Notes under the pieces: model-generated
What the model was told of the DNA's origin: nothing
Databases searched by the model: none
What the model saw: only the letters and a program-made list of their open reading frames with translations
Shown here: positions 1,673 to 18,194 of the stretch, piece after piece
How the letters are laid out: every line of letters starts with the position of its first letter
Numbering within the stretch: position 1 is the first letter of the stretch
Program-made: the position numbers and the translations under genes
DNA from: an uncultured Methanosarcinales archaeon
GTDB lineage: Archaea > Nanobdellota > Nanobdellia > Woesearchaeales > CAYVYK01
Assembly: GCA_964455675.1 (NCBI GenBank)
Contig: CAYVYK010000001.1
Location: 1 to 64,000 of the forward strand
Reading direction: 5' to 3'
Length of the DNA: 64,000 nt

Positions 1673-2089
1673 ATGAGGAAGGGACAACATGCGCAGGTTA
1701 GTATGGAGTATACGATTATCATTGGTTTCGTCATGATCATTCTCATCCCACTCATGATCATTTACGCAGAATTCTCAGATCAAACGAGGGATCAGGTAGT
1801 CATGAACGAGCTCTATCAGGTCGCTCGATTGATTGGAAACGAAATTGAAACAGTCTACTTTATCGGTGATCCTGCAAGGACGGAGATAAAGGTGTACATG
1901 CCTTCCGATGTTGCAAATGCGTCCCTTGTGAACCAGGAGATTGTCTTCCAGACGACGGTATATGGAGGTCGTAATGACGTGGTCGTGCCAACGAAAGTAA
2001 GCATGAATGGTTCCCTTCCAACTACAAAGGGGATTCATTATCTTGTCCTTACGGCTAAGGGTAACTGGGTTGAAGTTAGGATGAAGTGA
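1673..2089 (+). CDS. Pilin-like protein with class III signal peptide
   Basis: N-terminal AQVSMEY followed by a hydrophobic helix; lies upstream of pilus ATPase and TadC genes. Confidence 0.75.
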   Translation: MRKGQHAQVSMEYTIIIGFVMIILIPLMIIYAEFSDQTRDQVVMNELYQVARLIGNEIETVYFIGDPARTEIKVYMPSDVANASLVNQEIVFQTTVYGGRNDVVVPTKVSMNGSLPTTKGIHYLVLTAKGNWVEVRMK

Positions 2090-2090
2090 T

Positions 2091-2483
2091 ATGCTAAGGT
2101 CTCAGATCTCGCTGGAGTTTGTTATGTTTGTAGGTATTGGATTCATGGTTGCAATCATCCTCATGCTGGTTATTTCGCAGCAGCAGGCTGACCGCGAGAG
2201 CGAGCGGGATGATCTTGAGCTGCGGGACCTTGCGTACATGATAGAAGAAGAGGTTCTTCTCGCTAGTTCCGTCGAGCCGGGTTACTGGAGGAATTTTTCG
2301 GTGGAGCTTCCAAATGATGGGGAATTTGATGTAAGCGTGAACGGATCATATGTGAAATTGACTGCCGAATCAACATTATTTGAGTTTAGCGTTCCTCCGT
2401 TTCAGGGTCAGATTGTGAGGGGAGCAAACGTCATCTGTAACAAGAACGGAGAGGTGTTCATAGGGGATGCGCTCTGTAGGTAA
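2091..2483 (+). CDS. Pilin-like protein with class III signal peptide
   Basis: RSQISLEF followed by a hydrophobic helix; same operon. Confidence 0.75.
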   Translation: MLRSQISLEFVMFVGIGFMVAIILMLVISQQQADRESERDDLELRDLAYMIEEEVLLASSVEPGYWRNFSVELPNDGEFDVSVNGSYVKLTAESTLFEFSVPPFQGQIVRGANVICNKNGEVFIGDALCR

Positions 2484-2988
2484 GTCGGATAGCTGGGCAG
2501 GATTTTTTCCCCATAGAAAATCCCAGGTGTGGTATGGTGATTTTATTATTGCGCTCACTATTTTTGTCGCTGCCGTCATGATTTATTGGAGTTACCAGAA
2601 TAATTATGTTCCAGAAACAAAAAGCATCCAGTCTCTTTCGCTCGAAGCTGTCAATTTTGGCATGATGCTGAATAGTGAGGGAATTCCAGTGCACTGGACC
2701 TCGGTTAATGTCACAAGGGTTGGTATATCAAATGCTAACAACCGCATCAATGAGTCAAAGCTTCGCGAGTTTGCGATGATGAATCCTGAGACAGTGAGGA
2801 GGATTTCCAATCTTGAGTACAAGTACTTTGTGTACTTCCATCACACGAATGGATCATTCCTGCCAATAAACGCAACTCTCGACGCCGTTGGAGTCAATCC
2901 ACAGAATGCGACAAGGCTTGTCGAGACAAAGAGGCTCATGATCCGGGATAACGAGTTTGTGAATATGATAATCCAGGTGTGGGAATGA
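2467..2988 (+). CDS. Pilin-like/minor pilin protein
   Basis: RKSQVWYGDF followed by a hydrophobic helix; N-glycosylation sequons. The exact start is uncertain. Confidence 0.65.
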   Translation: MRSVGKSDSWAGFFPHRKSQVWYGDFIIALTIFVAAVMIYWSYQNNYVPETKSIQSLSLEAVNFGMMLNSEGIPVHWTSVNVTRVGISNANNRINESKLREFAMMNPETVRRISNLEYKYFVYFHHTNGSFLPINATLDAVGVNPQNATRLVETKRLMIRDNEFVNMIIQVWE

Positions 2989-5900
2989 GACTGAAGAAAA
3001 AGGCTGTATTTTTCACGATTGATGCAGTCATGGCGATCTCCCTTATTCTTGTGACAGTCATGATGGTTAGTTCCTTCTATGTATTTCGGCCGACGACAGA
3101 ACGCATTGACTATACAAGTTATGATATCCTTCAAGTTCTTGGCGAGATGAAAGTTTCACAGTCGAATAATCCGTACGTGCAGACTCTGTTTGCCAACGGA
3201 ACAATCACGCGAGGGAATAATACCCTTCTTGAGCAGATCGGCGAGTTCTGGGCTGATGGCGATGAGGATCATGCCCGCGAGTTGACATATGAGATCATGA
3301 GGGATGTGTTTGGTAACGACACGAATTGGGCGCTGAGCATTGCAGGTGACCTGGTTTACGAGACCTCATCTTCGGTCGGTACAAATGTCCGTACAGCAAA
3401 GCGCATGATTAGTGGCCTAGAGAAGATGAAGCCAACGTATGGATACACTGCAAGGGCGCTTATGACGCGGATGCGCGCGCGTGTTACGAATGGTATTGCG
3501 ACGCTTGGTGGTTTTGTTGGGCAGGGTAATATCACGATTCCGCTCCATCTAACAGGAAACATTTCGCTCGTCAGCGAGATATATCTTGAATTGTCTGCCG
3601 CATCTAACTTCACGCTGTATATTAATGACAATGCAACGGGAACGTATATTGTGGGCTCCGGCGGAGGAAACCCGGGGATCCTGAAACCTGATATCTGGAT
3701 CCTGAACGGCTCGGAAAGGGCGTTCATCAAGAACTTCACGAATAACATCAAGATTGTGTTCGCGAATTCATCGTCTCCGCAAAGCTATGTGAGTGGTGGC
3801 TTCATTAAGGTGAAGTATACGACGAGTAACTATGAGGAAACACACACGGAGTTTGTTGATGGCCGTATTGCACGGCACGCATATGAATTCCCGGGGATTT
3901 ATGGCGCGATCAATCTATTTGACTCATTTTATGTTCCAGGACCAATTCGTAACATGAGTATTCGTCTGCATTATTTCACGAATCATTCCCGCCATAACAA
4001 CACGATCATTTTTGTGATCGGCGATCATCCCCTGCTCATGGATAATGAGAGTACCACGCCTCAGGATATCATGTTCAATCATACCTACTTAAGTTCCGTC
4101 TTTGGCGGTTACTCATCATTTAATGATACTTCCGTCCCGATCAGGTTCGGTTTTGCGAATATCTCTGGGTCCACGGGCCTTGTTGATGTTGCGCTTGTTA
4201 CGGATCGCTCGGGTAGCATGGCCTTTGCGGGATGGCAGCTGCAGAATGACACGAGTCCACAGATCGTGATGGATGATGTGTATGTTCCAAATGGTGGCTG
4301 GTCCGGAATCCAGACGTTCACGGTTCCCTCCGCAGGCAGTATCTCGAATGCCATCACGTTTGAGGCAGAGAATTATTCCATGCAGATTAACCGTTCAAGT
4401 CACTACTGGCAGCGCGCCACATCCTGGTCTGGATACTCGGGAACAGGTTACGTTCAGTCGCTGCCAAATAATGGCGCAAACATCAATTCAGGGTACCAGA
4501 CAACGAGTCCTGAGCTGAGGTATACCGTGAATATTCCTCAGGCTGGAACATATTATGTCTGGCTTCGAATGAGAGCTGCAAACGGTAATGACAACAGCGC
4601 TCATGTTGGTATTGATGGAACAGCGCCCTCAAGTGCCGACCGCATTGAAGTTACATCGTACGGTTCATGGGTGTGGACGCGCTCAACCATAGATGGGCCT
4701 TCTGCAACACTTACGGTGGGAACTCCTGGTGTTCATACGGTTCATCTCTGGATGCGCGAGGATGGATTGGCCGTCGATAAGTTCCTTCTGACTACTTCAT
4801 CTTCCTTCGTTCCTTCGGGCTCATCTGGTGGATCATCTTCCGTCCAGCGCAGGCTTGCAGTGTCTCATGAGTGGGCAAGGTTCTTTGGTTATAATGGATC
4901 AGAGGCTTCTGAGCTCCAGATTAATGTTCGAAGGCCTGATGGCACATGGATCATTGGTGGCGGATCGTCCCTTCCGGCGAATCCTTCTGTGAGTGGTGTT
5001 GATCCCCCGACGGCTAGTGTTGGGACGGCTAACGAATACATGAGCGGTCGTTCCACAAAGCCGCAGGTGATTCTTGTGGATAATCCAGAGGTTGGAAACT
5101 GGGCTGTTGCTGTTCATGGCTTGAACTTCAGGCCATACTCTGCTGAACCCCCATACCTGAACACCACGATTAGTATTTTTATCGACACGCATGCAAATAG
5201 TTCTGATAATGTCACGAGAGGCCCAACAACAATTTCGATGGACGCGGCAAAACAAGCCGCTCATCTGTTCACGAACCTTACATCAATAAGCGATCAGATT
5301 TCTGTTGTAAGTTTCAGTACCACTGCTTCCACAAATCAGGTCCTGACTACGAATAAGAACCTGGTTCACACGGCGATTAATGGCCTTAGTGCTAATGGTG
5401 GAACACGTATTGATTTGGGGATTGCGCAGGGCCATAGCGAGTTGATTAGCGTTCGTGCGCGATCGAATGCGACACAAGTAATGATTCTCATAACAGATGG
5501 TCAGAATGACGTTGCTCCGTCGTACATTTTGGATGCTGCCGATGCTGCAAAGGCTGATGGTATTAGGATTTTCACGATCGGCTTAAGTTCCTTTGCTGAT
5601 GTGGATATTCTCGAGAAGGTTGCTTCAAATCCAGGCGATGCGTTTTACGCTCCGACGGGTGCTGAGCTTGAGACGATATACGAGGAGATATCTAGGATCA
5701 TTGATGCACAGTATCATTCGCAGGTTCTTTTCCTACAGGGCGTGTTTGGGGAATCTGTATTGTATCCTGATTCCAGTATCGAGTTTTATTACAATACCTC
5801 GCTCTCTCCCTTGCAGTTTGGTGAGATACCTCTCACAGCGACAAGTCAGGAATTTGTCGCGGGTGGAAATAATCTATCGCTTGGTCCGGAGATTAAGCTA

Positions 5901-6488
5901 ACTGAGTGGAAATCAACATCATACTCTGCGAACAACTGGACGTCGAAGGTTTTTGTTGATAACCTGAACGGTACGCACGAGGCCTTTTCGATGGCGGATT
6001 ACTCTCAGAATTTCACGCTTCTTGGGGATCCCTTTCTCGTGCATATTCCTCTCGGTTTCTATCAGTATGATGATTCAAACCTTGTGAGTGTGTTCTTAAC
6101 GAGCGGCCCAAACGAGACGAATGGCTCAAGGTACAATCGCCTGATGTACTCCGTGCGGATCAATGGTATTCTTGACTTTGGGAGCGTTGTTGGGGAGAGT
6201 GAGGGCTGTAAGTGGACGATTACGTATGAGGATGAGACGACAGAAGACTTCTTCTTCCCCCTTCCATACTTTGGCAACAAGACGTGCTATTATGCAAACA
6301 GCACCTACGATCCTGACGACGCGCGCGACATTGCGGTATTCAGCTTGTTCAGCCGTCTTGACTTTAACAAGAACGGAAAACTCGAGGTAAAACCTGACGA
6401 GAACAATCTTCGGTTGGAAGTGCTTGAGATCTCGAACGTTCCAAGTCTTTGGGGGCCAAGCCTCTTTGAGGTGAAATCATGGATCTAA
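2979..6488 (+). CDS. Large pilus-associated vWA adhesin with an inserted carbohydrate-binding-like domain
   Basis: KKAVFFTIDA class III-like N-terminus; MIDAS DRSGS; downstream vWA core (NGGT...MILITDG...IFTIG); a beta-sandwich running EAENY...YYVWLR...MREDG..VDK; many NxS/T sites. Confidence 0.8.
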   Translation: MGMRLKKKAVFFTIDAVMAISLILVTVMMVSSFYVFRPTTERIDYTSYDILQVLGEMKVSQSNNPYVQTLFANGTITRGNNTLLEQIGEFWADGDEDHARELTYEIMRDVFGNDTNWALSIAGDLVYETSSSVGTNVRTAKRMISGLEKMKPTYGYTARALMTRMRARVTNGIATLGGFVGQGNITIPLHLTGNISLVSEIYLELSAASNFTLYINDNATGTYIVGSGGGNPGILKPDIWILNGSERAFIKNFTNNIKIVFANSSSPQSYVSGGFIKVKYTTSNYEETHTEFVDGRIARHAYEFPGIYGAINLFDSFYVPGPIRNMSIRLHYFTNHSRHNNTIIFVIGDHPLLMDNESTTPQDIMFNHTYLSSVFGGYSSFNDTSVPIRFGFANISGSTGLVDVALVTDRSGSMAFAGWQLQNDTSPQIVMDDVYVPNGGWSGIQTFTVPSAGSISNAITFEAENYSMQINRSSHYWQRATSWSGYSGTGYVQSLPNNGANINSGYQTTSPELRYTVNIPQAGTYYVWLRMRAANGNDNSAHVGIDGTAPSSADRIEVTSYGSWVWTRSTIDGPSATLTVGTPGVHTVHLWMREDGLAVDKFLLTTSSSFVPSGSSGGSSSVQRRLAVSHEWARFFGYNGSEASELQINVRRPDGTWIIGGGSSLPANPSVSGVDPPTASVGTANEYMSGRSTKPQVILVDNPEVGNWAVAVHGLNFRPYSAEPPYLNTTISIFIDTHANSSDNVTRGPTTISMDAAKQAAHLFTNLTSISDQISVVSFSTTASTNQVLTTNKNLVHTAINGLSANGGTRIDLGIAQGHSELISVRARSNATQVMILITDGQNDVAPSYILDAADAAKADGIRIFTIGLSSFADVDILEKVASNPGDAFYAPTGAELETIYEEISRIIDAQYHSQVLFLQGVFGESVLYPDSSIEFYYNTSLSPLQFGEIPLTATSQEFVAGGNNLSLGPEIKLTEWKSTSYSANNWTSKVFVDNLNGTHEAFSMADYSQNFTLLGDPFLVHIPLGFYQYDDSNLVSVFLTSGPNETNGSRYNRLMYSVRINGILDFGSVVGESEGCKWTITYEDETTEDFFFPLPYFGNKTCYYANSTYDPDDARDIAVFSLFSRLDFNKNGKLEVKPDENNLRLEVLEISNVPSLWGPSLFEVKSWI

Positions 6489-7405
6489 GGCTTGGACGGC
6501 GTGCTGTCGTATTCACAGTCGTGAGTATCATCTTGGTTGGCCTGTTGATCTTGACAGTCTCGGTGTATATGACTCAGGAAAGGAAGGAGGAGGCGATGCT
6601 CACGCGGACGCGTGTCCTCACGATGAACCATTTCATTAGGGACGTGGAGAGAGACTTGAATCGTGGATTGCAGATCACGGGCTTTCGCAGCTTGCTCGCG
6701 ATGCAGGAGTATGTGCACACGAATGGCTCATACATCGATGATGTTTCAGTCCGTTTTAGGGAAGGCGTGGTGAATGGCACGATGTACGGTTCCGTCTCGC
6801 ACTTCCTCGTGAACTCAACCCTTCCCTGGTGGCTGTACAAGATCCAGTTGCAGGGTCAGCTGATAGGTATTGATGTGAATATCTCGTTTGACAATCTCGT
6901 ACTGTATCACGCGGAGCCTTGGTATGTTTCTGCTCGAATGAACGTGACGATGAACCTCTCGGATATGAAGGGTACAGCGGATTGGAGGCAGCAGATACCG
7001 ATTACGGTGAAGATCCCAATTGTTGATATGGAGGATCCTGTTTATCTTATGGAGAGTAATGGTACGATCGCAAATCAGATCCGGATAACAAATTTCACGA
7101 CGTTTAATGTCTCAGTATTGAAGCAGCACATTTCGGCAAGGATGTATCGTGCGGACAGCCGTGCGCCGGACTACCTCATGCGCCTCGAAGGAAACCTCTC
7201 GAATTCTACGTATGGAATTGAGAGCATTGTGGATCTTGGAACCATGGTCTTCCCGATGACATCGCGGAGTAGTGTGGATTACCTGTTCTTTGGCAATATG
7301 TCAGGAGGTGGATGCCTGGTGAATGAGACACTCTCTGATCCGGATTTTTCCTGGCTCCGCATGGATAGCGGGCACCTTATCGCGTACAACGTATCCTGCT
7401 CTTAA
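6479..7405 (+). CDS. Pilus-associated protein with class III-like signal peptide
   Basis: RRAVVFT followed by a hydrophobic helix; overlaps the adhesin stop codon. Confidence 0.6.
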   Translation: MDLRLGRRAVVFTVVSIILVGLLILTVSVYMTQERKEEAMLTRTRVLTMNHFIRDVERDLNRGLQITGFRSLLAMQEYVHTNGSYIDDVSVRFREGVVNGTMYGSVSHFLVNSTLPWWLYKIQLQGQLIGIDVNISFDNLVLYHAEPWYVSARMNVTMNLSDMKGTADWRQQIPITVKIPIVDMEDPVYLMESNGTIANQIRITNFTTFNVSVLKQHISARMYRADSRAPDYLMRLEGNLSNSTYGIESIVDLGTMVFPMTSRSSVDYLFFGNMSGGGCLVNETLSDPDFSWLRMDSGHLIAYNVSCS

Positions 7406-7479
7406 GCGTTTTAAATAGCGATATCTGGGGTTTTAGCAGGATCGCAAAATATATAAAGCGCTAAGTCTGCCGCTCACGT

Positions 7480-8628
7480 ATGGGTGAACCGGGGATTATT
7501 GTCACAGGAGTTGATAAGCTAATTAAGATGCTCAAGGATCAGAGTATGGTCACTGTTAGTGCTGCGGCAAAAAGTCTTGGGGTAAGCACCCGCACGGTTG
7601 AGGATTGGGTGTCATTTCTTGAGGAAGAGGATGTTGTCAAGGTGACGTATAAGCTCGCCACCCCATATATTTCGCTCAAGAAGGTTACGGAGACACAGAT
7701 TAACAAGAAAGCTGGAAAGCTCGAGCAACACAAGGACATTTTCGTCCGGAAAGCTGAGAATATGCTTTCATTTCTTGATCGTGAGGGTGAAGAGCTGAAT
7801 CAGATCCGTGATGAGTTTATGTCCCTGAAGAAGTCCATCGGCGAGAACGCTGAGCATGTCCAGGCGGAGATTCTCGAGCTTGAGAAGTATGAGAAGGCAA
7901 AGCGTGACGTTGATGCGAAGATAGAGTCTCAGCGCAAAGAAGTTGTCCAGAAGATTAAGAATATGGATAATGATATTGATCGCCAGCAGAAGCGATACCT
8001 CTCGATAATTAAGGAAGTTGAGGATGAAGAGAAGAGGATTCAGAAGGAGGAGCGTAGTGCTTCTGAGATGCAGAAACTTGAGGGTAATTTAAGAAAGAAA
8101 ATATCAGAATTCAGGGAGATGATCGCAACCCTTGAGGGTAGGATTGATACAGAGAAGTCAGGAATCGCAGACTCGGAAAAGCACATTTCGCGTCTGAAAC
8201 AGACTGCAGCCGAAGTGCATAAGACTCTCGAACATGAAAAAGAGGAGCTCATGGTCCTCATTAAGGAGAGTAAGAAGATGGAGCAGCAGGTTCTTGATGC
8301 ACAGGACAGCGTCCTGAAGAATTTATCGAGGAGGATGAAAGACTCGAATGATCTTCGCAAAGTCACGAAGGATTTCCGCGCGCTGTTCGCAAAAAAGAAT
8401 CAGGTTGAGGAGCTGATCAAGAAGATCAATCTTGATCGGAACGATCTCGAGAACGACCTGCACGCGCTCATCAAGAGGATTAAGAGTGTTCAGATCATGA
8501 AGAATGCGGCTGAGAGCGATGCCGAAATCCGTAATTTGTTCAATTTATTTGGCTTAATTGATAAAAAGAAGAAGGTTTTTGAATCCGAGATACATCAGCT
8601 TGGCCAGGTTATGAAGAAAAAGAGGTGA
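7480..8628 (+). CDS. N-terminal HTH-like domain plus long coiled-coil protein
   Basis: AAAKSLGVSTRTVEDWVSFLEE helix-turn-helix pattern, then about 300 aa of E/K-rich heptads. Confidence 0.65.
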   Translation: MGEPGIIVTGVDKLIKMLKDQSMVTVSAAAKSLGVSTRTVEDWVSFLEEEDVVKVTYKLATPYISLKKVTETQINKKAGKLEQHKDIFVRKAENMLSFLDREGEELNQIRDEFMSLKKSIGENAEHVQAEILELEKYEKAKRDVDAKIESQRKEVVQKIKNMDNDIDRQQKRYLSIIKEVEDEEKRIQKEERSASEMQKLEGNLRKKISEFREMIATLEGRIDTEKSGIADSEKHISRLKQTAAEVHKTLEHEKEELMVLIKESKKMEQQVLDAQDSVLKNLSRRMKDSNDLRKVTKDFRALFAKKNQVEELIKKINLDRNDLENDLHALIKRIKSVQIMKNAAESDAEIRNLFNLFGLIDKKKKVFESEIHQLGQVMKKKR

Positions 8629-10268
8629 ACATGGCAGGTAAGCAGCACCCGGGGCATCACGCGCCCGGAGAGCATGAGAAACATAGTTCTAGGAAGCGTG
8701 CTGTTCATCACGTAGTGCATCACCATAGAGCACATAAGCATGTCATGAAGCACGCTAAGCATAAGAAGAGTGATGCGCCGACTGAGCGTAAAATTGATTC
8801 TTACGACATTAAGTATGGTAAGCTTCCGGTCACAATCACGATCGTCCAGAAGCATGGTGAGTTTGTACCAAGTTATATTGTGAATATTTCAACCATTAGC
8901 CAGCATACGGAGATCATTCTGGAGAAGATTCGTCACGAGTTGATTGAGCAGGTAAACATTGGTATGCTCGATATTACGAAGACAAGGCATGATAACGAGC
9001 TAGAGAAACGCATGCAGGAAGCGATCGCGATGCTCGTAAGGAAGCATTTTCCTGAAGTGGATGAGGAGGGCATCGAGTTCTTGACATCATACCTAATCCA
9101 GCGCAGCCTAGGTCTTGGCAGGATTGAGTTACTTATGGAAGATGCGATGCTTGAGGAGATTGCAGTGAATAATGCTCAGGAGCCGGTTTGGGTCTACCAT
9201 CGGAAGCATGGATGGCTGAAGACGAATATTTTCCTCGCAAATGAGGATCAGGTGAGGCATTATGCATCCATGATTGGAAGAAAGGTTGGTCGTCAGATTA
9301 ATGTGCTCGAGCCGTTGATGGACGCGCACCTTGGAACGGGTGATCGTATCAACGCGACGCTCTCTCCTGTTTCGGTGAAAGGTAATACAATAACGATGAG
9401 GAAGTTCGCGGCAAAGCCCTGGACTATCACAGACTTCCTGAATTCTAACACTCTAACCACCAGAGCCGCGGCGATGATCTGGCTTGGTGTTCAGTACGAG
9501 ATGAGTATGATTATTGCTGGTGGTACTGCGAGTGGTAAGACAAGTATGTTGAACACGGTTTCGAATTTTTTCCCTCCAAATCAGCGGATCATAAGTATTG
9601 AGGACACTCGTGAGATTCAGCTCCCAAGTTTCCTCCACTGGCTCCCGATGAACACTCGCCTTCCAAATCCTGAGGGAAAAGGCGCGATCACCATGCTTGA
9701 CTTGCTGGTGAACTCCTTGCGCCAGCGTCCGGATAGGATTATTGTTGGTGAGATCAGAAGGAAGGCGGAGGCAGAGGTTCTGTTTGAGGCGATTCACACG
9801 GGCCACTCGGTATACGCTACCGTGCACGCAAATAACGCAAAGGAAGTGCTGACGCGCCTGACAAGTCCCCCGATCGAGATTCCAAAGAGTATGATCCCTG
9901 CAGTTTCCATGGTCATTGTGCAGTTTAGGAACCGTCGCACGGGAAATCGTAGGACATTCCAGGTTGCAGAGGTTTTGGACACGGGTGATATGAACGTTCT
10001 CATGCAGTATGATCCAAAGAAGGATCATCTTCTGGAAGTGGGCCATTCGCATGCGCTCATGGAGAATCTGGAGATGTACACCGGGTATTCAAGGAAAGAA
10101 ATTGAGGCTTCAATCCAAGAGAAGATCCATGTGCTTGAGTATTTGCAGAAGAAGGGCATAAACACGGTCGACGGTGTTGGAACGGTTATTGCTGAGTATT
10201 ACACGAATAAGGAATATCTGATGAAGATGATCCGTGAGAACAAGACCATTGAGCCTAAGTCCGGGTGA
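8625..10268 (+). CDS. Type IV pilus assembly ATPase (TadA/FlaI/VirB11 family) with His-rich N-terminus
   Basis: Walker A GGTASGKT, SIEDTRE, LRQRPDRIIVGEIR and TGH...TVHA His box. Confidence 0.93.
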   Translation: MNMAGKQHPGHHAPGEHEKHSSRKRAVHHVVHHHRAHKHVMKHAKHKKSDAPTERKIDSYDIKYGKLPVTITIVQKHGEFVPSYIVNISTISQHTEIILEKIRHELIEQVNIGMLDITKTRHDNELEKRMQEAIAMLVRKHFPEVDEEGIEFLTSYLIQRSLGLGRIELLMEDAMLEEIAVNNAQEPVWVYHRKHGWLKTNIFLANEDQVRHYASMIGRKVGRQINVLEPLMDAHLGTGDRINATLSPVSVKGNTITMRKFAAKPWTITDFLNSNTLTTRAAAMIWLGVQYEMSMIIAGGTASGKTSMLNTVSNFFPPNQRIISIEDTREIQLPSFLHWLPMNTRLPNPEGKGAITMLDLLVNSLRQRPDRIIVGEIRRKAEAEVLFEAIHTGHSVYATVHANNAKEVLTRLTSPPIEIPKSMIPAVSMVIVQFRNRRTGNRRTFQVAEVLDTGDMNVLMQYDPKKDHLLEVGHSHALMENLEMYTGYSRKEIEASIQEKIHVLEYLQKKGINTVDGVGTVIAEYYTNKEYLMKMIRENKTIEPKSG

Positions 10269-10274
10269 TGGTCA

Positions 10275-11087
10275 GTGCGCGGAGCCCTAGTTTGGTATGT
10301 GAAGCAACGGATGCCTGGTCTAGGTCTTTCTATGAAGCGCGCGGGGATGGATGAACCTGTTGATGAGTTTATCGTGCGGTGCGCAAAAGCTGGCCTCTAC
10401 ATGGCAGGTCTTGTTTCTGTTCTTGTATTCCTTTTGACCTCTGATAGCGGGGGATTTTGGTGGGCAATCATTGCTTTTCCGATTGCTGCTCCGCTCATGT
10501 TTGTGTACTTACTAAAGTCTCCCATTGCGCGCGTGGCAAAGAAGGAAAAGGAGATTAATCGTGAGATCCTATTCGCCGGCCGCTTTATGGTGATCGAACT
10601 GCAAAGCGGTGTGCCGCTCTATGATGCTCTCAAGAATGCAGCGACGCAGTACAAGGCTCTCGCCCCCTACATTCGTGAGATTATCACAAAAGTTGATCTT
10701 GGAACTTCGATGGATGATGCACTGAATGAGACTGTTGAGATCATTCCTTCTGAGAGTTTTCGAAAGATTCTGTGGCAGATCCTAAATTCCCTTCACACTG
10801 GTGCAGACATCGCAAATTCCTTACTTTCCGTGCTCGAGCAGATCACGAGGTCCCAGATGATCGAGATTGGTAAGTACGGACGCAAGTTGAATCCCATGGC
10901 GATGTTTTACATGATGGTTGCAGTGATTGTCCCCACGCTTGGGATCACGATGCTCGTCGTGCTTGCCACGATGACTGGTTTTTCCTTGAAGCTTCCTATT
11001 CTTCTCATGATCGCAGGACTTGTGGCGTGCGTTCAGATCATGTTTCTGATTATGATTAAGAATTCGCGCCCGGCGGTTGAATTATGA
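10275..11087 (+). CDS. Type II secretion system F / TadB-TadC family membrane protein
   Basis: Cytoplasmic T2SSF-like domain between TM helices; follows the ATPase. Confidence 0.85.
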   Translation: MRGALVWYVKQRMPGLGLSMKRAGMDEPVDEFIVRCAKAGLYMAGLVSVLVFLLTSDSGGFWWAIIAFPIAAPLMFVYLLKSPIARVAKKEKEINREILFAGRFMVIELQSGVPLYDALKNAATQYKALAPYIREIITKVDLGTSMDDALNETVEIIPSESFRKILWQILNSLHTGADIANSLLSVLEQITRSQMIEIGKYGRKLNPMAMFYMMVAVIVPTLGITMLVVLATMTGFSLKLPILLMIAGLVACVQIMFLIMIKNSRPAVEL

Positions 11088-12286
11088 AGGATAGTAAAGA
11101 GATGCATGAATTAAAGAAGCATGTTGTGCATAAGGTTCCCCTAAGGAAGCGCTGGGATAATTGGGTTAATGGAATGAAGGAGAGGTACGCCAAGAAGACT
11201 CCACCGGTGAAGGTTGTCGAGCCGCCGGTGGAATGGGATCGCCTCCAGAATGTTCAGATGTTCCGAAAGGAGCTTCAGAAAAGAATTAAGGAAGAGAAGA
11301 AGCTTGAGCGCAAGAAGCACACCCTGAAGTTCTATCTGCCAAAGGCAGGAATCTTCATGGAGTCTGACGCATTCTTCCGTATCCTGTTCATAATTACGAC
11401 AGCCCTCAATATTGTTCTGACGATCTCGTTCATTTGGTATTTCATGACATACAGAGGTTTTGGTATCCTGTATATCCTCCTCATGCTGTTCCTTCTCTGG
11501 ACGGTGGGTTTTGTTATTTCTTTTTTCATTGTGTGGGCAGGGGCATTCTTCTACATTGACGTGATGATGTTTCGTCGTAGAGTTGAGATTGAGAAGGTAT
11601 TGCCAGACTTTCTTCTGCTCACCGCGTCAAACATTAAGGCAGGAATGACGATCGACCAGGCTTTGTGGTATGCAGTGCGTCCAAGATTTGGTGTTCTTGC
11701 GCACGAGATTGAGATTGTGGCAAAGGAGACGATGACAGGCGAGGACTTAAAGAAGGCTTTGCATAAGTTTGCTCGTAAGTATGATTCTCCGGTGCTTTCA
11801 AGAACTATTAGCTTGATCACTGAGGGTATCGACGCGGGTGGTAAGATGGGTGACTTGCTCACGAAAATCGCGACAAACCTTCAGGAAAGTGACCTTGTGA
11901 GGAAAGAGATGGCCGCGAATGTTACGACATACATCATATTCATCACGTTCGCAACGATAATTGCTGCTCCCTTCTTGTTTGCCCTTTCGACCCAGATGAT
12001 TGACGTCGTTACTGGGCTTACATCCTCAATTGATCTCACGCAGGCAACCGGCCTCTCAGCTCCGGTAAAAGTGGGCACGGGAGGCATTGAGATCGGAGAC
12101 TTCCGGGTGTTTGTATTTGTCACGATGGCTCTAGGCTCCTTTATTTCCGCAATGATTATCTCAGTCATCAAGAATGGAACGGTAAAGCAGGGTCTTGGGT
12201 ATATTCCTGCATTCATTGCAGTGTCATTTATGGTGTATATCGTTGCGAATTTTCTGCTTGGTAGCGTCTTTAGCGGATTTTTCTGA
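11084..12286 (+). CDS. Type II secretion system F / TadC family membrane protein
   Basis: LPDFLLLTASNIKAGMTIDQAL and GIDAGG motifs; several TM helices. Confidence 0.88.
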   Translation: MKDSKEMHELKKHVVHKVPLRKRWDNWVNGMKERYAKKTPPVKVVEPPVEWDRLQNVQMFRKELQKRIKEEKKLERKKHTLKFYLPKAGIFMESDAFFRILFIITTALNIVLTISFIWYFMTYRGFGILYILLMLFLLWTVGFVISFFIVWAGAFFYIDVMMFRRRVEIEKVLPDFLLLTASNIKAGMTIDQALWYAVRPRFGVLAHEIEIVAKETMTGEDLKKALHKFARKYDSPVLSRTISLITEGIDAGGKMGDLLTKIATNLQESDLVRKEMAANVTTYIIFITFATIIAAPFLFALSTQMIDVVTGLTSSIDLTQATGLSAPVKVGTGGIEIGDFRVFVFVTMALGSFISAMIISVIKNGTVKQGLGYIPAFIAVSFMVYIVANFLLGSVFSGFF

Positions 12287-12317: not shown

Positions 12318-13289
12318 TTAATTCCAAACGCCGTACCGGTATGCTCTGCTGATGTCAGTGAGGTGCGATAGAACATTGCGCATGAGCCCTCGTATTTTTG
12401 ATCCGGTTATGCTTCGATCGTTCTGTCGATAGTCCTCAAGGTGCATGAAGATCTGCTTGCGCCAGTCAAGATTCTTGTCCATGAGATTTTTGTCCACGGT
12501 ATGTATCGCTTTGAAGGTATTTTCAAAGTGCGCAATAAGCTCGTCAAGGATGATATAGAATTGTTTTCTCTGCTGTGGTGTCTGTTTAAGTTCCGGGATA
12601 AGTCTTCCGATTCTCTTGCATTCATCCCCGATTCTCTCAAGCTGAATGTTGAGCGTCCAGAGCCTAATGATTTTAATGACGTCAAGGTCAAGTTCGCTCG
12701 CGACGGCATTGTCGACTGCTGCTACTTGTAAGATGCGCATGACAAGGAATCCAAGCCGATTGACGTCTTTATCCCGTTCCTCGATGTTATTTGTCATCGT
12801 TCGTTCGTTCTCGGCTAGTTCCAGGTCAGTAAGCATGGTAAGCACGATGTGCTCGATCCGCCGAAGAATACGCTCGATATCGCGGTCTTTGTAGTTGAGA
12901 AAGTCTTTTGCGATGATTTTGTTCTTTTCTTCCTGCACGACTTCAAGAGCGACTAGATAGCTGATGAACCTCTTGATGTGCAATGCCTCTTCGTGAGTGT
13001 TGTACTTGATGACAATTTCATTGTAGTTGCTGATATATGCTGCGATGATGTCGCGTTCCGTGTGGTTGATAGGCCTATTTCCGACGGTGATTTCAATCGT
13101 CCGCTTCTCTTTTTTCTCTTCTTCGTGACTACCTTTGTGCAAGCCCACGAGCAATTTGTCCCTTCCCTTGCGTTCCAGGATGATTGTGTCCCCGCTTTTG
13201 AGTTTGTTGTCGTTCAGAAAATCTTTAGGTAGTGATATGACATTGCTGCAAAGGCCTGATTTGACGAGTTTTCTCGCATACATGGTCAT
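12318..13289 (-). CDS. AbrB-PhoU family phosphate-uptake regulator
   Basis: N-terminal RKLVKSG...ISLPKDF...LKSGD AbrB-like motif; PhoU repeats (RDKDVNRL, LERIGDEC). Confidence 0.8.
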   Translation of the reverse strand: MTMYARKLVKSGLCSNVISLPKDFLNDNKLKSGDTIILERKGRDKLLVGLHKGSHEEEKKEKRTIEITVGNRPINHTERDIIAAYISNYNEIVIKYNTHEEALHIKRFISYLVALEVVQEEKNKIIAKDFLNYKDRDIERILRRIEHIVLTMLTDLELAENERTMTNNIEERDKDVNRLGFLVMRILQVAAVDNAVASELDLDVIKIIRLWTLNIQLERIGDECKRIGRLIPELKQTPQQRKQFYIILDELIAHFENTFKAIHTVDKNLMDKNLDWRKQIFMHLEDYRQNDRSITGSKIRGLMRNVLSHLTDISRAYRYGVWN

Positions 13290-13324
13290 GCAGATGCTCT
13301 ACGAGTATAAGAATATTTCTGTTT

Positions 13325-13376
13325 AGTATATACTTTATGTACGATACATACAATACGCACTTAAAATATATATTTT
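13325..13376. promoter_or_regulatory. Divergent promoter with three AT-rich palindromes (candidate operators)
   Basis: agtatatact (13325-13334), tatgta-cga-tacata (13336-13350) and aaaatatatatttt (13363-13376). Confidence 0.5.
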
Positions 13377-13397
13377 TCAGATTCCCTCCTTCAGTGT

Positions 13398-14423
13398 ATG
13401 CCAAGGAAGAAATCTGACGAGGAAAAACCTGATTTGTACAGGATCTTGCAGGTTCAGCCTTCGGCGGATCCTGAAGTAATTAAGGCAGCATCGCGTGCGC
13501 TAGTCCTCAAGTATCATCCAGATCATGGTGGTAATGGCGAGCATTTCAAAGAGATTAATCTGGCGCGCAAGGTCCTCGAGGATGAAAAGGAGCGCACAGA
13601 GTATGATGCGCAATTGAGGAAGTCCTGTGCGAATATGATTGGTCCCTATCAGCTTACAAGGAAGATTTCAGAGGGCGGTTTTGGCAGGGTCTATGAGGGG
13701 GTTCATACTCTTCTCGGCGAAAAAGTGTGTATTAAGCAGAACCTGCGGGTATCAGCGGAAGACACTGAGATGTTCGTCAAGGAGGCAAAGGCGATTTGGG
13801 AGCTTAGGCATCATGCGCTGCCTGCCGTGCGTGATATGATTGAGCTTCCAGACGGTAGCATGACGCTCGTGATGAGTTATATTCCTGGGCCGACGCTCGA
13901 ACAGGTCGTTAAAAAGTATGAGGCAAAGAATGATCATATTGATCCTGAGTCTGTATGCTGGATAGCCGAGCGTGTTCTTGACGCTCTTCGCTACATGCAT
14001 TGGCATGGTGTTGTACACGGTGATGTGAAGCCTGCAAATATTATCGTTCAGCCGGAAACCCATACGTGTGCTCTTGTTGATTTCGGTCTCTGTACAATTC
14101 GTCCGACATCACGTTCGCATGCAGAGGGCTACACCCCCCTGTTCGCAAGTCCCGAAAGTCTTGGCGATGGCCCTCTGCTTCCAGAATCTGATTTGTATAG
14201 TCTGGGTTTGACGATGATTTATGCTCTTGGAGGAGATGTGAAGAGAAAACGTATTCCGTCGTCAATTCCTGCAGGTATTCGCGACTACGTGAATGATCTC
14301 GTCATTTACGATGTCGCGGAGCGCCCGCACTGGGACAATATTGACCTTGTACAGAAACTTCGCGAGGTTCGCCTAAAGGAATTCGGTAGGTCTCATTCCG
14401 GTTTAGCGGAACTGCGATTGTAA
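13398..14423 (+). CDS. J-domain (DnaJ) - Ser/Thr protein kinase fusion
   Basis: DLYRILQV...YHPD...YD J-domain; kinase motifs GGFGRVY, VCIK, HGDVKPAN, DFG, SPE and DLYSLG. Confidence 0.92.
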   Translation: MPRKKSDEEKPDLYRILQVQPSADPEVIKAASRALVLKYHPDHGGNGEHFKEINLARKVLEDEKERTEYDAQLRKSCANMIGPYQLTRKISEGGFGRVYEGVHTLLGEKVCIKQNLRVSAEDTEMFVKEAKAIWELRHHALPAVRDMIELPDGSMTLVMSYIPGPTLEQVVKKYEAKNDHIDPESVCWIAERVLDALRYMHWHGVVHGDVKPANIIVQPETHTCALVDFGLCTIRPTSRSHAEGYTPLFASPESLGDGPLLPESDLYSLGLTMIYALGGDVKRKRIPSSIPAGIRDYVNDLVIYDVAERPHWDNIDLVQKLREVRLKEFGRSHSGLAELRL

Positions 14424-14444
14424 GAATTGTTGGAGGGAAAAACC

Positions 14445-15290
14445 ATGACAAGTGTAGCGGTAGCTGTAAAAGATTTTGAGAAGATGTTAGAGCGGAATTG
14501 TGCAAAGCCAAAAAAGTCGCGTCTTGAGGAGATTTGCAGGCATGTGGACTCCGTCAGCAGTAACACGCCAGAAGTGTATGATGACGAAAGGATTGGAAAA
14601 TACCTGCGCGACCGTGCTAAAGTGCTCAAGCAGCTGGCGGGTGAGTACATGGACCATGTGGTGTCCACGCATTTGCCGCTGATTGATCCTGCGCTCTTCA
14701 AGATGCAGCGATATATCACGATTGCGACGCAAGATCGCAAGCAGCGGGTTGTTCGCGATGCGCTCGAACCTGATGCAAAAAAAGGAGATCAGAAGAAGAT
14801 TGTCGTTCCGCTCTTCGCGTACACGACGCTGTTTGAAGGAGAGCCGGTTGCGACGCTCGGATCCTACACAAAAGAGCGAAGAGGCAGCTTCGGCGAACGT
14901 TATCGCTCGACGACAAAGATCACGGCTAAGCTCGGCGATGTTCCGCAGAACATGGTGCGTGCATACCAGCAGGGAGTTGCTGAGTACTTCCAGGCGCTGA
15001 GTGAAGTCTACGCCAAGCCAGTCATCGGTCAGGTACTTCTGCAGGAGGGAGTGCCATCTCCAAAAGCCGGCGCGATCTGGATTCCTTCGCTTGATTCGCT
15101 AAAGCTTGAGGTTTCTGAGTCACTCATCGCTCCTGCGCCGAGCCGTGATCCAGCGCTCGTCCTCACTGCTGGAGGTAAGCACTATCTCATTGCGACGTGG
15201 GATGCGATTAATGAGGAGCCCTTCGAACACTACATCAGAGAGTACACGACCGGCAGCATCAAGGACAAAATGCCTGAACGGAGGAGGTGA
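14445..15290 (+). CDS. Hypothetical protein in the kinase-vWA operon
   Basis: Long ORF with a GGAGG-like SD before ATG 14445; tightly coupled to both neighbours; no recognisable motif. Confidence 0.7.
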   Translation: MTSVAVAVKDFEKMLERNCAKPKKSRLEEICRHVDSVSSNTPEVYDDERIGKYLRDRAKVLKQLAGEYMDHVVSTHLPLIDPALFKMQRYITIATQDRKQRVVRDALEPDAKKGDQKKIVVPLFAYTTLFEGEPVATLGSYTKERRGSFGERYRSTTKITAKLGDVPQNMVRAYQQGVAEYFQALSEVYAKPVIGQVLLQEGVPSPKAGAIWIPSLDSLKLEVSESLIAPAPSRDPALVLTAGGKHYLIATWDAINEEPFEHYIREYTTGSIKDKMPERRR

Positions 15291-15294
15291 AATC

Positions 15295-16281
15295 ATGTCG
15301 GAAATGGGAGATTCCTACGATCCTGGTCCCTGGAGGGGCTACAGTTACACGTCAGCTCGTGCACCAAAGAGGATTGACCCTACTGCGGGAAGAGGATACG
15401 GTTCGCATAGCGCTCGAGTTTCGCGCCGTCTCGCAGGGCCTGACCGTGACAAGCTTTGTCCGGCAAACATTGCCACCGATGCGAAATCACCCCTTGTTAT
15501 CGTCGTGGACGGTACCGGGTCCATGGGGAAGTATCCGGAGGTGATGTTCAAGAAGCTTCCCCTACTGGACCTAGGAATAGAGGATTATCTGCAGGACTGT
15601 GAGATTTCCTTTGCCATGGTTGGTGATGCAGGTTCTGATCATTATCCACTGCAGGTGCAGCCGTTCACAAAGGGAAAGAAGCTTGTTGGTAGTCTGAATA
15701 ACTTGATCATTGAGGGTAACGGAGGTGGCAACCAGCAGGAAAGCTATGACCTTGCTGGCCTTTATTATGCGAGGAACTGTAAGATGCCAAAGGCAACGAA
15801 TCCAGTATTGATCTGGGTCTGCGATGAAGGGATCTATGGCGAAGTTGACAAGGCATGGGCCGAGGAACATGCAAGAGTTACGCTGGATAAAAAATTGAGA
15901 TCCTTGGATCTGTGGAAGGAATTGCAGGACAAGTTTGCCATGTACTGCATCCGAAAGCACTATGAGGACATGGTTGATGGCGACCGCATGGTTGGTGCTA
16001 ATCTCGCAATTCACCGCCAGTGGGAGCAGTACGTCGGCGCTGACAAGATTGCGTTGCTGCCCAATCCGGAGCGTGTGGTGGACGTTATTTTCGGTCTTGT
16101 GGCGCACCACACGGGTAAGGAGGACTTCTTCCAGCAGGAGCTAACGTACCGTCAGAAACCTGGCCAGGTGAAGGAAGTCAACGCGAGCATGGTGAGTATT
16201 GGAAAGGGCAAGGGAGGACACACTGGTGCTTCCATCGTGAAGCGTTCAACACGCGGAACGACGAGCCAGTCGCTCCTGTAG
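15295..16281 (+). CDS. vWA-domain protein (MIDAS variant DGTGSM)
   Basis: VIVVDGTGSMG, AMVGDA, EGNGGGNQQESY and VCDEG; ggaggtga SD precedes ATG 15295. Confidence 0.82.
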   Translation: MSEMGDSYDPGPWRGYSYTSARAPKRIDPTAGRGYGSHSARVSRRLAGPDRDKLCPANIATDAKSPLVIVVDGTGSMGKYPEVMFKKLPLLDLGIEDYLQDCEISFAMVGDAGSDHYPLQVQPFTKGKKLVGSLNNLIIEGNGGGNQQESYDLAGLYYARNCKMPKATNPVLIWVCDEGIYGEVDKAWAEEHARVTLDKKLRSLDLWKELQDKFAMYCIRKHYEDMVDGDRMVGANLAIHRQWEQYVGADKIALLPNPERVVDVIFGLVAHHTGKEDFFQQELTYRQKPGQVKEVNASMVSIGKGKGGHTGASIVKRSTRGTTSQSLL

Positions 16282-16289
16282 GTGCTCTG

Positions 16290-17267
16290 ATGGCGCTCGA
16301 AATACTTGCGACGTTGTGGCCCGAGATGGGCCATTTCCATTATTTTGCCCGTGATAACAGGCTCGGTGGAATTCGGTTGAACACAGCGATGACAAATACC
16401 AAGGAGCTTCCTGGCATTGTCAGAAAAGCGGTTAATCAATCAGGTGATATGCCCTTGTATTTTGACGTGAAGGGCAGGCAGTTGAGGATCACTGAGGTAT
16501 CCCCAAATAACGACCACTTGGAGTGTCGTATTAACCATCCGATTTCTGTTGACACTCCAACGATGGTCCTCTTTAAGGCAGGTGTTGATGGAGCGGTTCT
16601 GCAGGAGGTGCGCGGTGACTACTTAGTATTTGATGGTGGCCCAAAGTATGGACTGATCCCGGGCGAGTCCCTGCACGTGCGAGATTCTTCACTGAAAGTC
16701 CATGGACCTACGTTTACTCCTGAGCAGCTTGCGTACCTTGACATCGCGATGAGTGCAGGCATTAGGCGATACATGCTTTCGTATGTGACAAGTAGTTCCG
16801 AGATTAGGGATATGCGAAAAATTGTTGGTGATAGCGAGATCGTGGCTAAGATTGAGTCGCTTGATGGACTAAAGTACGTCGATCATGAATATCGAAAGTC
16901 CCAAAATCTTGGCTTGCTTACTGCGCGTGGTGATTTATTTGTGGAGGTTCACCGCCCGCACGAGATTGCCGACGCAACGAAGCGTATCATTCGTGCGGAT
17001 CGCGACGCGATTGTGGGCAGCAGGATTCTGCTCTCTCTTGGCGAGGATGAAGTGCCCTCATGTGCTGACATTAGTGAGGTGAATTGGCTGCTTGATGTTG
17101 GATATCGTAGATTCATGTTTTGTGATAGCCTTTGCCTCAAGAAGGACGCGCTCGACCATGCGGTGAATGTGCTGCAGGCAATTTATGATGATTACCAACC
17201 CCAAACCTATGCTCCAAAAGGCTTTTTTGGGAGACTGATGGGCACGGTAAGGCATCCGGTGGTGTGA
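16290..17267 (+). CDS. Divergent pyruvate-kinase-fold enzyme lacking the C-terminal domain
   Basis: ILATL.P, IRLN, DVKG..LR, VAKIES and ARGDL.VE match the PK barrel; only 325 aa long. Confidence 0.75.
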   Translation: MALEILATLWPEMGHFHYFARDNRLGGIRLNTAMTNTKELPGIVRKAVNQSGDMPLYFDVKGRQLRITEVSPNNDHLECRINHPISVDTPTMVLFKAGVDGAVLQEVRGDYLVFDGGPKYGLIPGESLHVRDSSLKVHGPTFTPEQLAYLDIAMSAGIRRYMLSYVTSSSEIRDMRKIVGDSEIVAKIESLDGLKYVDHEYRKSQNLGLLTARGDLFVEVHRPHEIADATKRIIRADRDAIVGSRILLSLGEDEVPSCADISEVNWLLDVGYRRFMFCDSLCLKKDALDHAVNVLQAIYDDYQPQTYAPKGFFGRLMGTVRHPVV

Positions 17268-17346
17268 TAGCCGAGAAGTTGATATGGGGGAGGTAGATGC
17301 ACGAGTAGCACTAAATTTATATAGAGAAAAATGCTCGAAGGGTGGT

Positions 17347-17742
17347 ATGGATGAAGAGATTTTCCGCTCGGCGAAAGTATACCTTATTGTTCTCGTTGGT
17401 GTCTTTGCATCGGTTATGGGTGTCTGGTGGCTTGGTGGCTTTGAGCCTAATCCTTCGATAGCGAACTGTAACCTTCCAGCTGGCTTTGAGTGTATCGATT
17501 TTACCATGTCCCCGACGGGTGCTGTGATCCATATCCAGAGCCATGAGGAAGTTGATATTGAGAAGATTCAGCTAGATGGTTGTGAAGTGGTCCGTGATGT
17601 GCACATGGAGGGCGGCCAGCGAAAACTGATCCGTTTTGATTGCAGGGATACAGAGACCCCCGATCGTGATATTACTTTTTCGTATAAGGAGAACGAGATC
17701 GCTGAGACCGGTATTGGGAGTATCACGGGCGTGGCAGGATGA
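17347..17742 (+). CDS. Membrane-anchored protein resembling the archaeal pilin globular domain
   Basis: TM helix then CNLPAGFECIDF, similar to CTMSPGFSCTEF in the pilin at 35246. The start is inferred from a TATA element near 17315. Confidence 0.55.
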   Translation: MDEEIFRSAKVYLIVLVGVFASVMGVWWLGGFEPNPSIANCNLPAGFECIDFTMSPTGAVIHIQSHEEVDIEKIQLDGCEVVRDVHMEGGQRKLIRFDCRDTETPDRDITFSYKENEIAETGIGSITGVAG

Positions 17743-18194
17743 AAGGCCAGGTCTCGAATGAGATAGTATTCATTTTTGCGTTTGCGGTGATGATGATTCT
17801 AATCGCTCTGCTGATTTTTCCAGATATTGGATGGTTTGGTTCTGGCATTGTCATACATGAGCGCTGCATGGCAGGTGGAGGTTTTAATTGTCTTGGCACT
17901 TCAGTTGAGTATACGGATGATGGGCTGAATGTTGACGTGCTTCTTGAGAATGCAAAAGGTTTTGATGTGGAGAATGTTTCCATTCAATCGACAGAGTGTA
18001 ATTCCACGTTCACGACGGGTATTATCAATAAGACAGGTAGGTTTTGGATGAATCTGTCGGGGTGCTTTCCTGACAGGCTTCCGCATGATAGCTTTGATTT
18101 GAGTTTTGGCATTAGGTATAACTCGCTGCCGCAGAGGGTGACGCATTGGGAGGCGGGAAGTATAGTCGCGATTGTTCCGGGTGATGCTCCATGA
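17739..18194 (+). CDS. Pilin-like protein with class III signal peptide
   Basis: MKGQVSNE followed by a hydrophobic helix and CMAGGGFNC. Confidence 0.7.
   Translation: MKGQVSNEIVFIFAFAVMMILIALLIFPDIGWFGSGIVIHERCMAGGGFNCLGTSVEYTDDGLNVDVLLENAKGFDVENVSIQSTECNSTFTTGIINKTGRFWMNLSGCFPDRLPHDSFDLSFGIRYNSLPQRVTHWEAGSIVAIVPGDAP

Follow-up and report, generated by a model that had tools for sequence, protein, structure and literature searches.

A mobile module of a J-domain kinase, a vWA protein and a short pyruvate-kinase-like enzyme in an archaeal genome, with relatives in NAD operons and huge phages

The stretch of DNA analysed here, hereafter called the window, comprises the first 64,000 nucleotides of contig CAYVYK010000001.1 (GenBank assembly GCA_964455675.1), and originates from an archaeon with a 1.72-Mb genome that is 99% complete. 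At positions 13398..17267 it carries four same-strand genes, which encode a J-domain Ser/Thr kinase, an uncharacterised 281-aa protein, a protein with a von Willebrand factor type A (vWA) domain and a short pyruvate-kinase-like protein, designated PKL below together with its relatives. The locus holds a copy of a module of three genes (J-kinase, vWA, PKL) that is conserved and horizontally mobile and has the vWA-PKL pair as its functional core. The same gene order was seen in approximately 100 loci of other genomes, spanning two domains of life and huge phages, a recurrence that is far beyond chance, and the module looks like an uncharacterised metabolic module, not like a known defence system. 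The reading that we favour is that of a phosphotransfer enzyme derived from pyruvate kinase (PK), associated with a vWA partner, placed under the control of a kinase and Hsp70, and having an ancestral tie to nicotinamide adenine dinucleotide (NAD(P)) and nucleotide metabolism; as a whole, we give it an even chance of being correct.

Conservation of the module was scored by tblastn in 89 unique loci, the window included, which comprised 16 loci from the window's order and the best 80 of 417 from all prokaryotes, eight duplicates having been dropped. The kinase was counted only where at least 2300 bp of upstream DNA were available and the vWA gene where at least 1100 bp were available, and a J domain was scored as present when the match to the window kinase began at or before residue 30. 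Relatives of PKL are numerous, with 557 in a 90% cluster database and 417 in contigs representing one genome per species, and the homologues of the window's protein carry Woesearchaeota and Nanoarchaeota labels. Within the order, a PKL match was found in 17 of the 151 genomes, three of these 17 being weak matches to ordinary PKs of 460-480 aa. The vWA gene is located immediately upstream of PKL in 75 of 76 loci, the sole miss being L118. In the window's clade, which comprises the loci with a PKL identity to the window's protein of 42% or more (n = 35), a kinase is found upstream in 30 of 31 loci and has a J domain in 26 of the 31. Among the other 54 loci 13 of 34 have a kinase, in every case archaeal and lacking a J domain, and the 21 bacterial loci (Anaerolineae, Acidobacteriota and others) for which sufficient upstream sequence was available are all without one. 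A first-pass annotation, made from the letters of this DNA, had treated the four genes as one functional unit. Co-conservation across DPANN archaea, Candidate Phyla Radiation (CPR) bacteria and large phages stood for the kinase, vWA and PKL, and failed for the 281-aa gene, which occurs in none of the 104 other module loci and is part of the module only in this window.

The PKL protein matches the PK barrel of Pfam (PF00224; 38.6 bits, cut-off 30), and the profile of its family aligns to residues 1-332 of E. coli PykF (E 1e-21), so that the TIM-barrel A domain and the B lid are homologous over this range. Every residue that PK uses for phosphoenolpyruvate (PEP), Mg2+ and the nucleotide phosphate is kept: the RxN, DxK..R, KIE and ARGD motifs align with PykF and with the canonical PK of a relative, and R29, N31, D59, K61, R66, K187, E189, R213 and D215 are present in 104-105 of 105 sequences. 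The Ser and Thr of what we take to be the K+ site of PK are changed in PKL (RLNT.., D[LV]K). PKL differs from PK in its shortened lid, its constant position beside a vWA gene, its coexistence with canonical PKs and its lack of the allosteric and tetramerisation domain, since it ends about 20 residues beyond the barrel and the C-terminal PK_C domain (PF02887) is absent, as it is from the whole of this genome. The family profile is fitted less well by PDB entry 8IW2, a 321-aa chain named pyruvate kinase for which no relevant paper was found, than by PykF.

The gene 3 product has only a weak match to the Pfam family VWA_2 (E 0.0028, under the cut-off). Its vWA fold was confirmed at the level of a predicted structure, which has a predicted local distance difference test (pLDDT) value of 80.4, with mostly over 90 for the core residues 50-300, and which matches the vWA domains of integrin beta-I, CMG2, NorD and TFIIH-p44 with a Foldseek probability of 1.0. 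The metal ion-dependent adhesion site (MIDAS) is complete, and its residues (D72-x-T74-G-S76, D111, E149, D177) are invariant in 92 of 92 sequences; the N-terminus (MSEMGD..) agrees with that of aligned homologues. The C-terminus separates two forms of the protein. A CxxC..CxxC zinc ribbon is found there in 28 of 37 kinase-less loci versus 0 of 62 kinase-linked loci, and in the kinase-linked proteins its place is taken by a disordered tail, basic and rich in Ser, in which the motif G-[KR]-S-[VI]-x-[KR]-[KR] recurs and which often terminates in ..SLL. This tail may be the substrate of the module kinase. Prediction of a complex between PKL and the vWA protein gave a score of 0.07, which carries no weight either way on binding. 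In the relative G002 the vWA gene is tandemly duplicated within the module (L027:5906-7849).

The kinase has an N-terminal J domain (Pfam DnaJ, PF00226, residues 12-70; 56.7 bits, cut-off 27.8) with its HPD motif at 40-42, followed by a kinase domain (Pkinase, E 4.8e-33, residues 84-280). As the first-pass annotation had stated, both the HPD and the kinase catalytic motifs are intact: K113, E129, H207-G-D209, N214, D228-F-G and P252-E253 can be read from the sequence, the protein displays the Gly loop, beta3 Lys, alphaC Glu, catalytic HxD..N, DFG and APE features of Hanks-type kinases, and K113, E129, HGD207-209, N214, D228 and E253 are kept in 56-61 of 62 module kinases. The HGD signature makes it a non-RD kinase. 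The J domain has a partner available, because the same genome encodes an HSP70 (DnaK, C3:72737-74470) as well as a canonical DnaJ on the same contig.

Outside the window's clade, the pair is embedded in cofactor metabolism. Pfam searches on 134 open reading frames (ORFs) around the 16 loci of the order and on 98 ORFs around 14 further loci placed the distant PKL copies in clusters for NAD and nucleotide salvage, and by tblastn a homologue of nicotinamide mononucleotide adenylyltransferase (NMNAT), NAD synthase (NadE) or NAD kinase (NADK) was located within 6 kb in 45 of the 54 loci of the other group versus 1 of the 35 of the window's clade. By a rough estimate for a genome of this size, chance alone would place an NAD gene within such a 12-kb interval in no more than a few percent of cases. 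Since the loci share ancestry, the counts overstate independence; the association nonetheless holds in both a bacterial clade and an archaeal grade. In Anaerolineae the order is a NadM-like nucleotidyltransferase, vWA, PKL and a glutamine-dependent NAD synthase (L091, L102, L112, L114), and the best NCBIfam match of this nucleotidyltransferase is the archaeal NMN adenylyltransferase, under the cut-off. In DPANN the order is NMNAT, kinase, vWA, optionally an accessory protein called x292 (described below), PKL and NAD kinase, and genes for NadE, NUDIX and NrtR-like proteins, phosphoribosyl pyrophosphate synthetase and nucleoside hydrolase are found around these NAD-linked copies. The genome studied here itself has a second PKL copy, on contig C5, which is 37% identical to that of the window, has its own kinase and vWA protein and is located in a cluster of this type (Table 1). 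The position of the vWA-PKL core inside NAD operons, second copy included, thus points to metabolism and away from threat sensing. A role of the pair as a missing nicotinate or quinolinate phosphoribosyltransferase was ruled out by the NAPRTase-family gene beside the second copy and by the motifs of PKL, which are specific to PK and not to phosphoribosyltransferases; no quinolinate phosphoribosyltransferase was found in this genome. In a third type of context, seen in L038, L040, L149 and L151, two of which are on IMG/VR contigs, the gene immediately after vWA and PKL is that for adenylosuccinate synthetase (PurA); in L038 PfkB and a deaminase are also nearby.

The window's copy belongs to a separate branch of the family. 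In the IQ-TREE phylogeny of PKL it falls within a 36-member clade of DPANN and CPR members with a support of 100 and a long stem (1.34), the bacterial NAD-operon clade has a support of 95, and the archaeal NAD-linked forms are basal. The window's clade has lost the NAD linkage and gained the J domain. A scan of IMG/VR with the PKL alignment resulted in 19 loci on contigs of 45-485 kb, 17 of which (some records near-identical) carry J-kinase, vWA and PKL in order, the other two being PurA-linked. According to a PHROGs search on 130 flanking ORFs from nine phage loci, the flanks encode HNH and endonuclease VII nucleases, thymidylate synthase, dihydrofolate reductase, DNA ligase, RNA ligase, RIIB-like proteins, a helicase, a major head protein and a virion structural protein. 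Four of the five phage records examined are 392-485 kb in size with a CheckV completeness of 85-100%, and one record matches a GenBank 'uncultured phage' of 485 kb; in INPHARED, where one record matched, no isolated phage carries the module. An Hsp70 is encoded in none of the five records, and the phage J domain must therefore use that of the host. NAPRTase-family genes are present in three of the five and cytidylyltransferase-like genes in all five, away from the trio. In a FastTree phylogeny of the clade, phage sequences stand at no fewer than six separate places among CPR and DPANN, which indicates repeated transfer. On contigs of 291 kb to 1.24 Mb the CPR copies are flanked by cellular genes, and the CPR copies are therefore not all mis-binned phage.

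In the favoured reading, PKL would be an active PEP-dependent phosphotransferase. Most simply it would make ATP or another nucleoside triphosphate from PEP, supplying the ATP-hungry synthesis of nucleotides and NAD(P), and it may catalyse the PK reaction itself (PEP + ADP -> pyruvate + ATP). The vWA protein would be the obligate partner of PKL and would take over the regulatory and oligomerising role of the C-domain that PKL lacks. The kinase of archaea, CPR and phages would switch the pair by phosphorylating the disordered Ser-rich tail of the vWA protein, and in the window's clade the J domain would also bring DnaK to the complex, transcription being likely controlled by a divergently encoded AbrB-PhoU protein. 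The window's copy would represent a derived clade, evolving fast, that has moved out of the NAD operon and is passed around among DPANN, CPR and huge phages; as this clade is outside the NAD operon, its substrate may have changed.

Several points weigh against this scheme. Catalysis and partner binding are predictions, and phylogeny confounds the correlation between the vWA tail and the kinase, the loci without a kinase amounting in essence to a single bacterial clade. The PKL tree is a quick IQ-TREE run with SH-aLRT support only, the careful search being unfinished. Because NAD genes adjoin only 1 of the 35 loci in the window's clade, the NAD link is drawn from paralogues and may not apply to the window's copy, and the cluster of the second copy already holds nicotinate phosphoribosyltransferase, NMNAT, NadE and NADK, so that it has no obvious missing step. 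The genome has an enolase, no canonical PK and one PEP-utilising enzyme, so that in this organism PKL could also act as the plain glycolytic enzyme. Finally, the patchy distribution (17/151), the presence in phages and the interleaved tree would be expected of a conflict system as well.

A more far-reaching form of the favoured reading can be put forward tentatively, and we regard it as rather improbable: the vWA-PKL pair would be a new enzyme system of NAD(P) and nucleotide metabolism, a phosphotransferase derived from PK and driven by PEP in which the regulatory C-domain has been replaced by a separate MIDAS-vWA subunit. Its J-kinase form would have been captured by and exchanged among huge phages, CPR bacteria and DPANN archaea, where it would sustain NAD or energy in drained cells or infected cells, the drain being caused for example by NAD-depleting immunity or by episymbiosis. 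Each part of the module comes from a textbook family, and the combination is conserved in more than 100 loci of two domains and huge phages; no description of a kinase-vWA-PKL architecture was found in the published literature, searched at the level of titles and abstracts, in agreement with the first-pass annotation, which knew of no characterised system of this kind. That a PK has dispensed with its regulatory domain and invariably has a vWA gene as its neighbour suggests a novel mode of building or controlling a central phosphotransfer enzyme. In Anaerolineae and DPANN, about whose cofactor economy little is understood, the genes for NMNAT and NAD synthase flank the pair, a position that points to a hitherto unrecognised part of NAD(P) metabolism. 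The J-kinase in 400-kb phages provides a testable case of a phage kinase recruiting the Hsp70 of its host.

The module could alternatively serve a phage-style takeover or counter-defence, with the J-kinase clade restoring or protecting energy, NAD and nucleotide pools during infection or episymbiosis, or re-programming host proteins through DnaK, and with DPANN and CPR having acquired their copies. The full trio within clearly phage flanks, in records of up to 485 kb that lack an Hsp70, and the scattering of phage sequences through the tree fit such a role, as do the ancestral link of the module to NAD synthesis and two further phage genes: an ADP-ribosylglycohydrolase within 8 kb of the trio in the huge-phage loci L134, L144 and L150, and a Thg1-like tRNA-His guanylyltransferase after the trio in L133, L139 and L144 (approximately 9100-11300). 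However, no NAD gene adjoins the trio in phage loci, and the window's copy is chromosomal, with housekeeping surroundings and a flat G+C content (0.46-0.51) that rule out its location in a provirus or island. We consider this explanation unlikely. Phage J-domain proteins that hijack the host DnaK are known, such as Rki of phage RB43, and the module has in common with them an HPD-bearing J domain in phages without their own Hsp70; the Rki-type J domain is stand-alone, whereas that of the module is fused to an active-type kinase and linked to vWA and PKL. Phages also possess the NAD reconstitution pathways NARP1 (Adps and Namat) and NARP2 (Nampt and NMNAT), which share with the module the character of phage-borne genes with evolutionary ties to NAD synthesis operons. 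The trio contains no defining NARP enzyme, and the analogy is a hypothesis only.

Stress or antiviral signalling of the TerY type, in which the kinase would sense or phosphorylate the vWA protein and PKL would make or consume a signal molecule, was the function proposed by the first-pass annotation. The TerY-P triad consists of the vWA protein TerY, a PP2C phosphatase and a Ser/Thr kinase of Ter stress clusters, and was reportedly described by Anantharaman, Iyer and Aravind in 2012. The module resembles it in having a cytoplasmic MIDAS vWA protein encoded beside a Hanks-type kinase, and patchy distribution and horizontal transfer would be consistent with such a role. It differs in its PK-like third partner, in its NAD-operon context, and in lacking a phosphatase: no phosphatase family was present among the Pfam matches of the window ORFs and 30 related loci, and the only phosphatase seen was a dual-specificity phosphatase PHROG match near phage locus L141. 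Nor were Ter genes (TerD, TerC and similar) found among the scanned neighbours. PADLOC 2.0 found no complete defence system; the kinase matched defence kinases (mad6, PD-T4-6), which are generic kinase-domain matches, and the vWA protein, PKL and the 281-aa protein matched nothing. The neighbouring 28 ORFs gave generic methyltransferase, ABC ATPase and radical-SAM matches only, so that the location near a defence island that had also been anticipated was not found. As there is no phosphatase, Ter gene or defence island, and as the core pair occurs without a kinase in the NAD operons of free-living bacteria, the proposal is not supported, and we judge it quite unlikely.

PKL might also be simply the minimal glycolytic pyruvate kinase of the organism, its neighbours regulating the glycolytic flux. 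All PK catalytic residues are kept, homologues are named 'pyruvate kinase' in some sources, and the genome encodes one enolase, no PK with a C-domain and only one PEP-utilising enzyme, of 808 aa (C12:12413-13345). On the other hand, PKL scores 46.7 bits against the NCBIfam pyruvate kinase model TIGR01064, versus an equivalog cut-off of 306.4, and the genome has two diverged copies, each with a vWA protein and a kinase. The pair is moreover found in Anaerolineae NAD operons and huge phages, and a canonical PK with PK_C co-occurs in 7 of 14 PKL-bearing genomes of the order (in G004 at 1.6 kb from a PKL), so that PKL is not simply the housekeeping PK. It is a separate, vWA-coupled lineage (the first-pass annotation had called it divergent), and the glycolytic explanation is decidedly unlikely. 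The idea of a phospho-regulatory unit for the adjacent type IV pilus genes, comparable to the ArnA/ArnB/ArnC-ArnD network that regulates the archaellum of Sulfolobus, is highly improbable. Both systems combine a cytoplasmic archaeal vWA protein with Ser/Thr kinases near a type IV pilus-like locus; in the window the module lies between T2SSE/T2SSF genes and two pilin-like ORFs, and L068 and L076 likewise have a T2SSE homologue in its vicinity. Against this, a pilus ATPase gene is nearby in only 3 of the clade's 35 loci, the scanned ORFs contain no FHA-domain partner, the FHA/Zn-ribbon partner of Arn is missing, and the invariant partner is PKL, which has no Arn counterpart, and not a pilus gene.

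The 281-aa protein encoded between the kinase and the vWA gene had been taken for an orphan. This view could not be upheld: a HMMER search of 1.84 billion cluster representatives resulted in 199 homologous representatives at E<=1e-3, of which 78 at E<=1e-10, where a word-indexed search had found a single relative, and the protein is 40% identical to P0122, the conservation being arranged in blocks. It matched no family of Pfam, NCBIfam, PADLOC or PHROGs, PHROGs gave 0 families for 46 members of its family, a scan of IMG/VR viral contigs for the family gave 0 loci, and the ESM Atlas gave no usable match; the AlphaFold2 model, built on an alignment of only two sequences, is unusable (pLDDT 34). 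Only 3 of 301 genomes of the order carry the family, and none of 11 other loci with a member has a vWA or PKL gene beside it. We read the gene as a lineage-specific insertion between kinase and vWA, a junction that carries other inserts in the phage loci L139, L143 and L147. In L127 (3232-12161) a homologue has on one side a divergent Ser/Thr kinase of 510 aa with an AAA ATPase and on the other an HTH-DUF3467-GrpE-DnaK(-DnaJ) cluster, a single case that possibly represents an association of the family with kinases and Hsp70, echoing the J-kinase of the window.

Another accessory protein, x292, of about 290 aa, is encoded between vWA and PKL in approximately ten loci of both clades (L033:7728-8603, L031, L044, L047, L068, L077, L078, L085, L099 and L113), which include the nearest relatives of the window and not the window itself. 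It has a mean column identity of 64% and belongs to no Pfam, NCBIfam or PHROGs family; the ESM Atlas returned unnamed clusters and a weak BPL_N/GATase1-like lead at 0.90. Comparison with the 281-aa family by hhalign revealed no relation, and BLASTP against the 281-aa protein and the vWA protein found nothing.

The four ORFs were confirmed on the forward strand (Table 1), with gaps of 21, 4 and 8 nt that agree with the 4-21 nt given by the first-pass annotation, and by their spacing the genes are tightly coupled. The Shine-Dalgarno motifs that it reported before the second and third genes are present: GGAGG stands upstream of ATG 14445, the likeliest start of the 281-aa gene (an in-frame TTG at 14427 is the alternative), and GGAGGAGGTGA stands just before the vWA ATG at 15295. 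Reading the sequence ahead of the kinase gene revealed no such motif; an A/T run about 20-35 nt upstream of its ATG may be a putative archaeal TATA element. The proposal of a four-gene operon holds as regards this coupling and is left without an established 3' end, since the next ORF begins 16 nt past PKL and packed forward-strand genes continue to 19485, so that the boundary of the predicted operon is not fixed at 17267. These downstream genes are two pilin-like ORFs, which overlap by 4 nt, a GCD14-type methyltransferase and Endo_dU.

Table 1. Features of the module locus in the window and of the second copy in the same genome.
Feature	Coordinates	Strand	Description
AbrB/MazE-like + PhoU-domain regulator	12318..13289	-	Divergent from the module; Pfam PhoU E 3e-6, MazE_antitoxin E 0.0013
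Intergenic region	13290..13397	+	108 nt, AT-rich, common to kinase and divergent regulator; read from sequence
J-domain + Hanks-type Ser/Thr kinase (gene 1)	13398..14423	+	341 aa, non-RD 'HGD' type; Pfam DnaJ, Pkinase; stop codon ends at 14423
281-aa protein (gene 2)	14445..15290	+	Uncharacterised, mostly archaeal family; HMMER homologues, no named family; stop at 15290
vWA protein (gene 3)	15295..16281	+	328 aa, cytoplasmic; intact MIDAS; disordered N-terminal 47 residues; disordered basic Ser-rich C-tail ending SLL; stop at 16281
PKL (gene 4)	16290..17267	+	325 aa; A barrel and reduced B lid, no C-terminal domain, PK catalytic residues kept; ATG at 16290
Pilin-like ORF	17284-17742	+	About 150 aa, N-terminal hydrophobic helix, no Pfam family
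Pilin-like ORF	17739-18194	+	About 150 aa, starts MKGQ then hydrophobic stretch, no Pfam family
Second copy (L033)	C5:70000-88000, locus ~300-11600		NAPRTase-family, NadE (667 aa), NUDIX-like, NMNAT, kinase without J domain, vWA, 292-aa x292, PKL, 155-aa ORF, nucleoside hydrolase, NAD kinase

The divergent AbrB-PhoU protein is likely to be a dedicated transcription factor of the module, for which it is the candidate: its homologues adjoin the module in 9 of the 35 loci of the window's clade, often with the gene immediately upstream, and in 5 of the 54 others. In locus L074 a PHO4 phosphate transporter gene is located between the AbrB-PhoU gene and the kinase.

Records titled 'uncultured Methanosarcinales' or 'uncultured Gammaproteobacteria' (L046, L051, L068, L060, L074 and L080), one of which belongs to the window's own order (G072), have PKLs that group with DPANN or CPR, and the automatic labels of these metagenome-assembled genomes look unreliable.

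The surroundings of the locus are made up, as the first-pass annotation had described, of housekeeping genes (ABCE1, Nop56/58, fibrillarin and a wyosine radical-SAM enzyme) and type IV pilus-like genes (T2SSE and two T2SSF). The upstream type IV pilus-like locus also encodes, on the forward strand at 2979-6485, a protein of 1169 aa in which a canonical VWA domain (E 1.2e-19) is combined with a GH115_C-like region. This protein is probably a pilus-associated adhesin and is not related to the vWA protein of the module.

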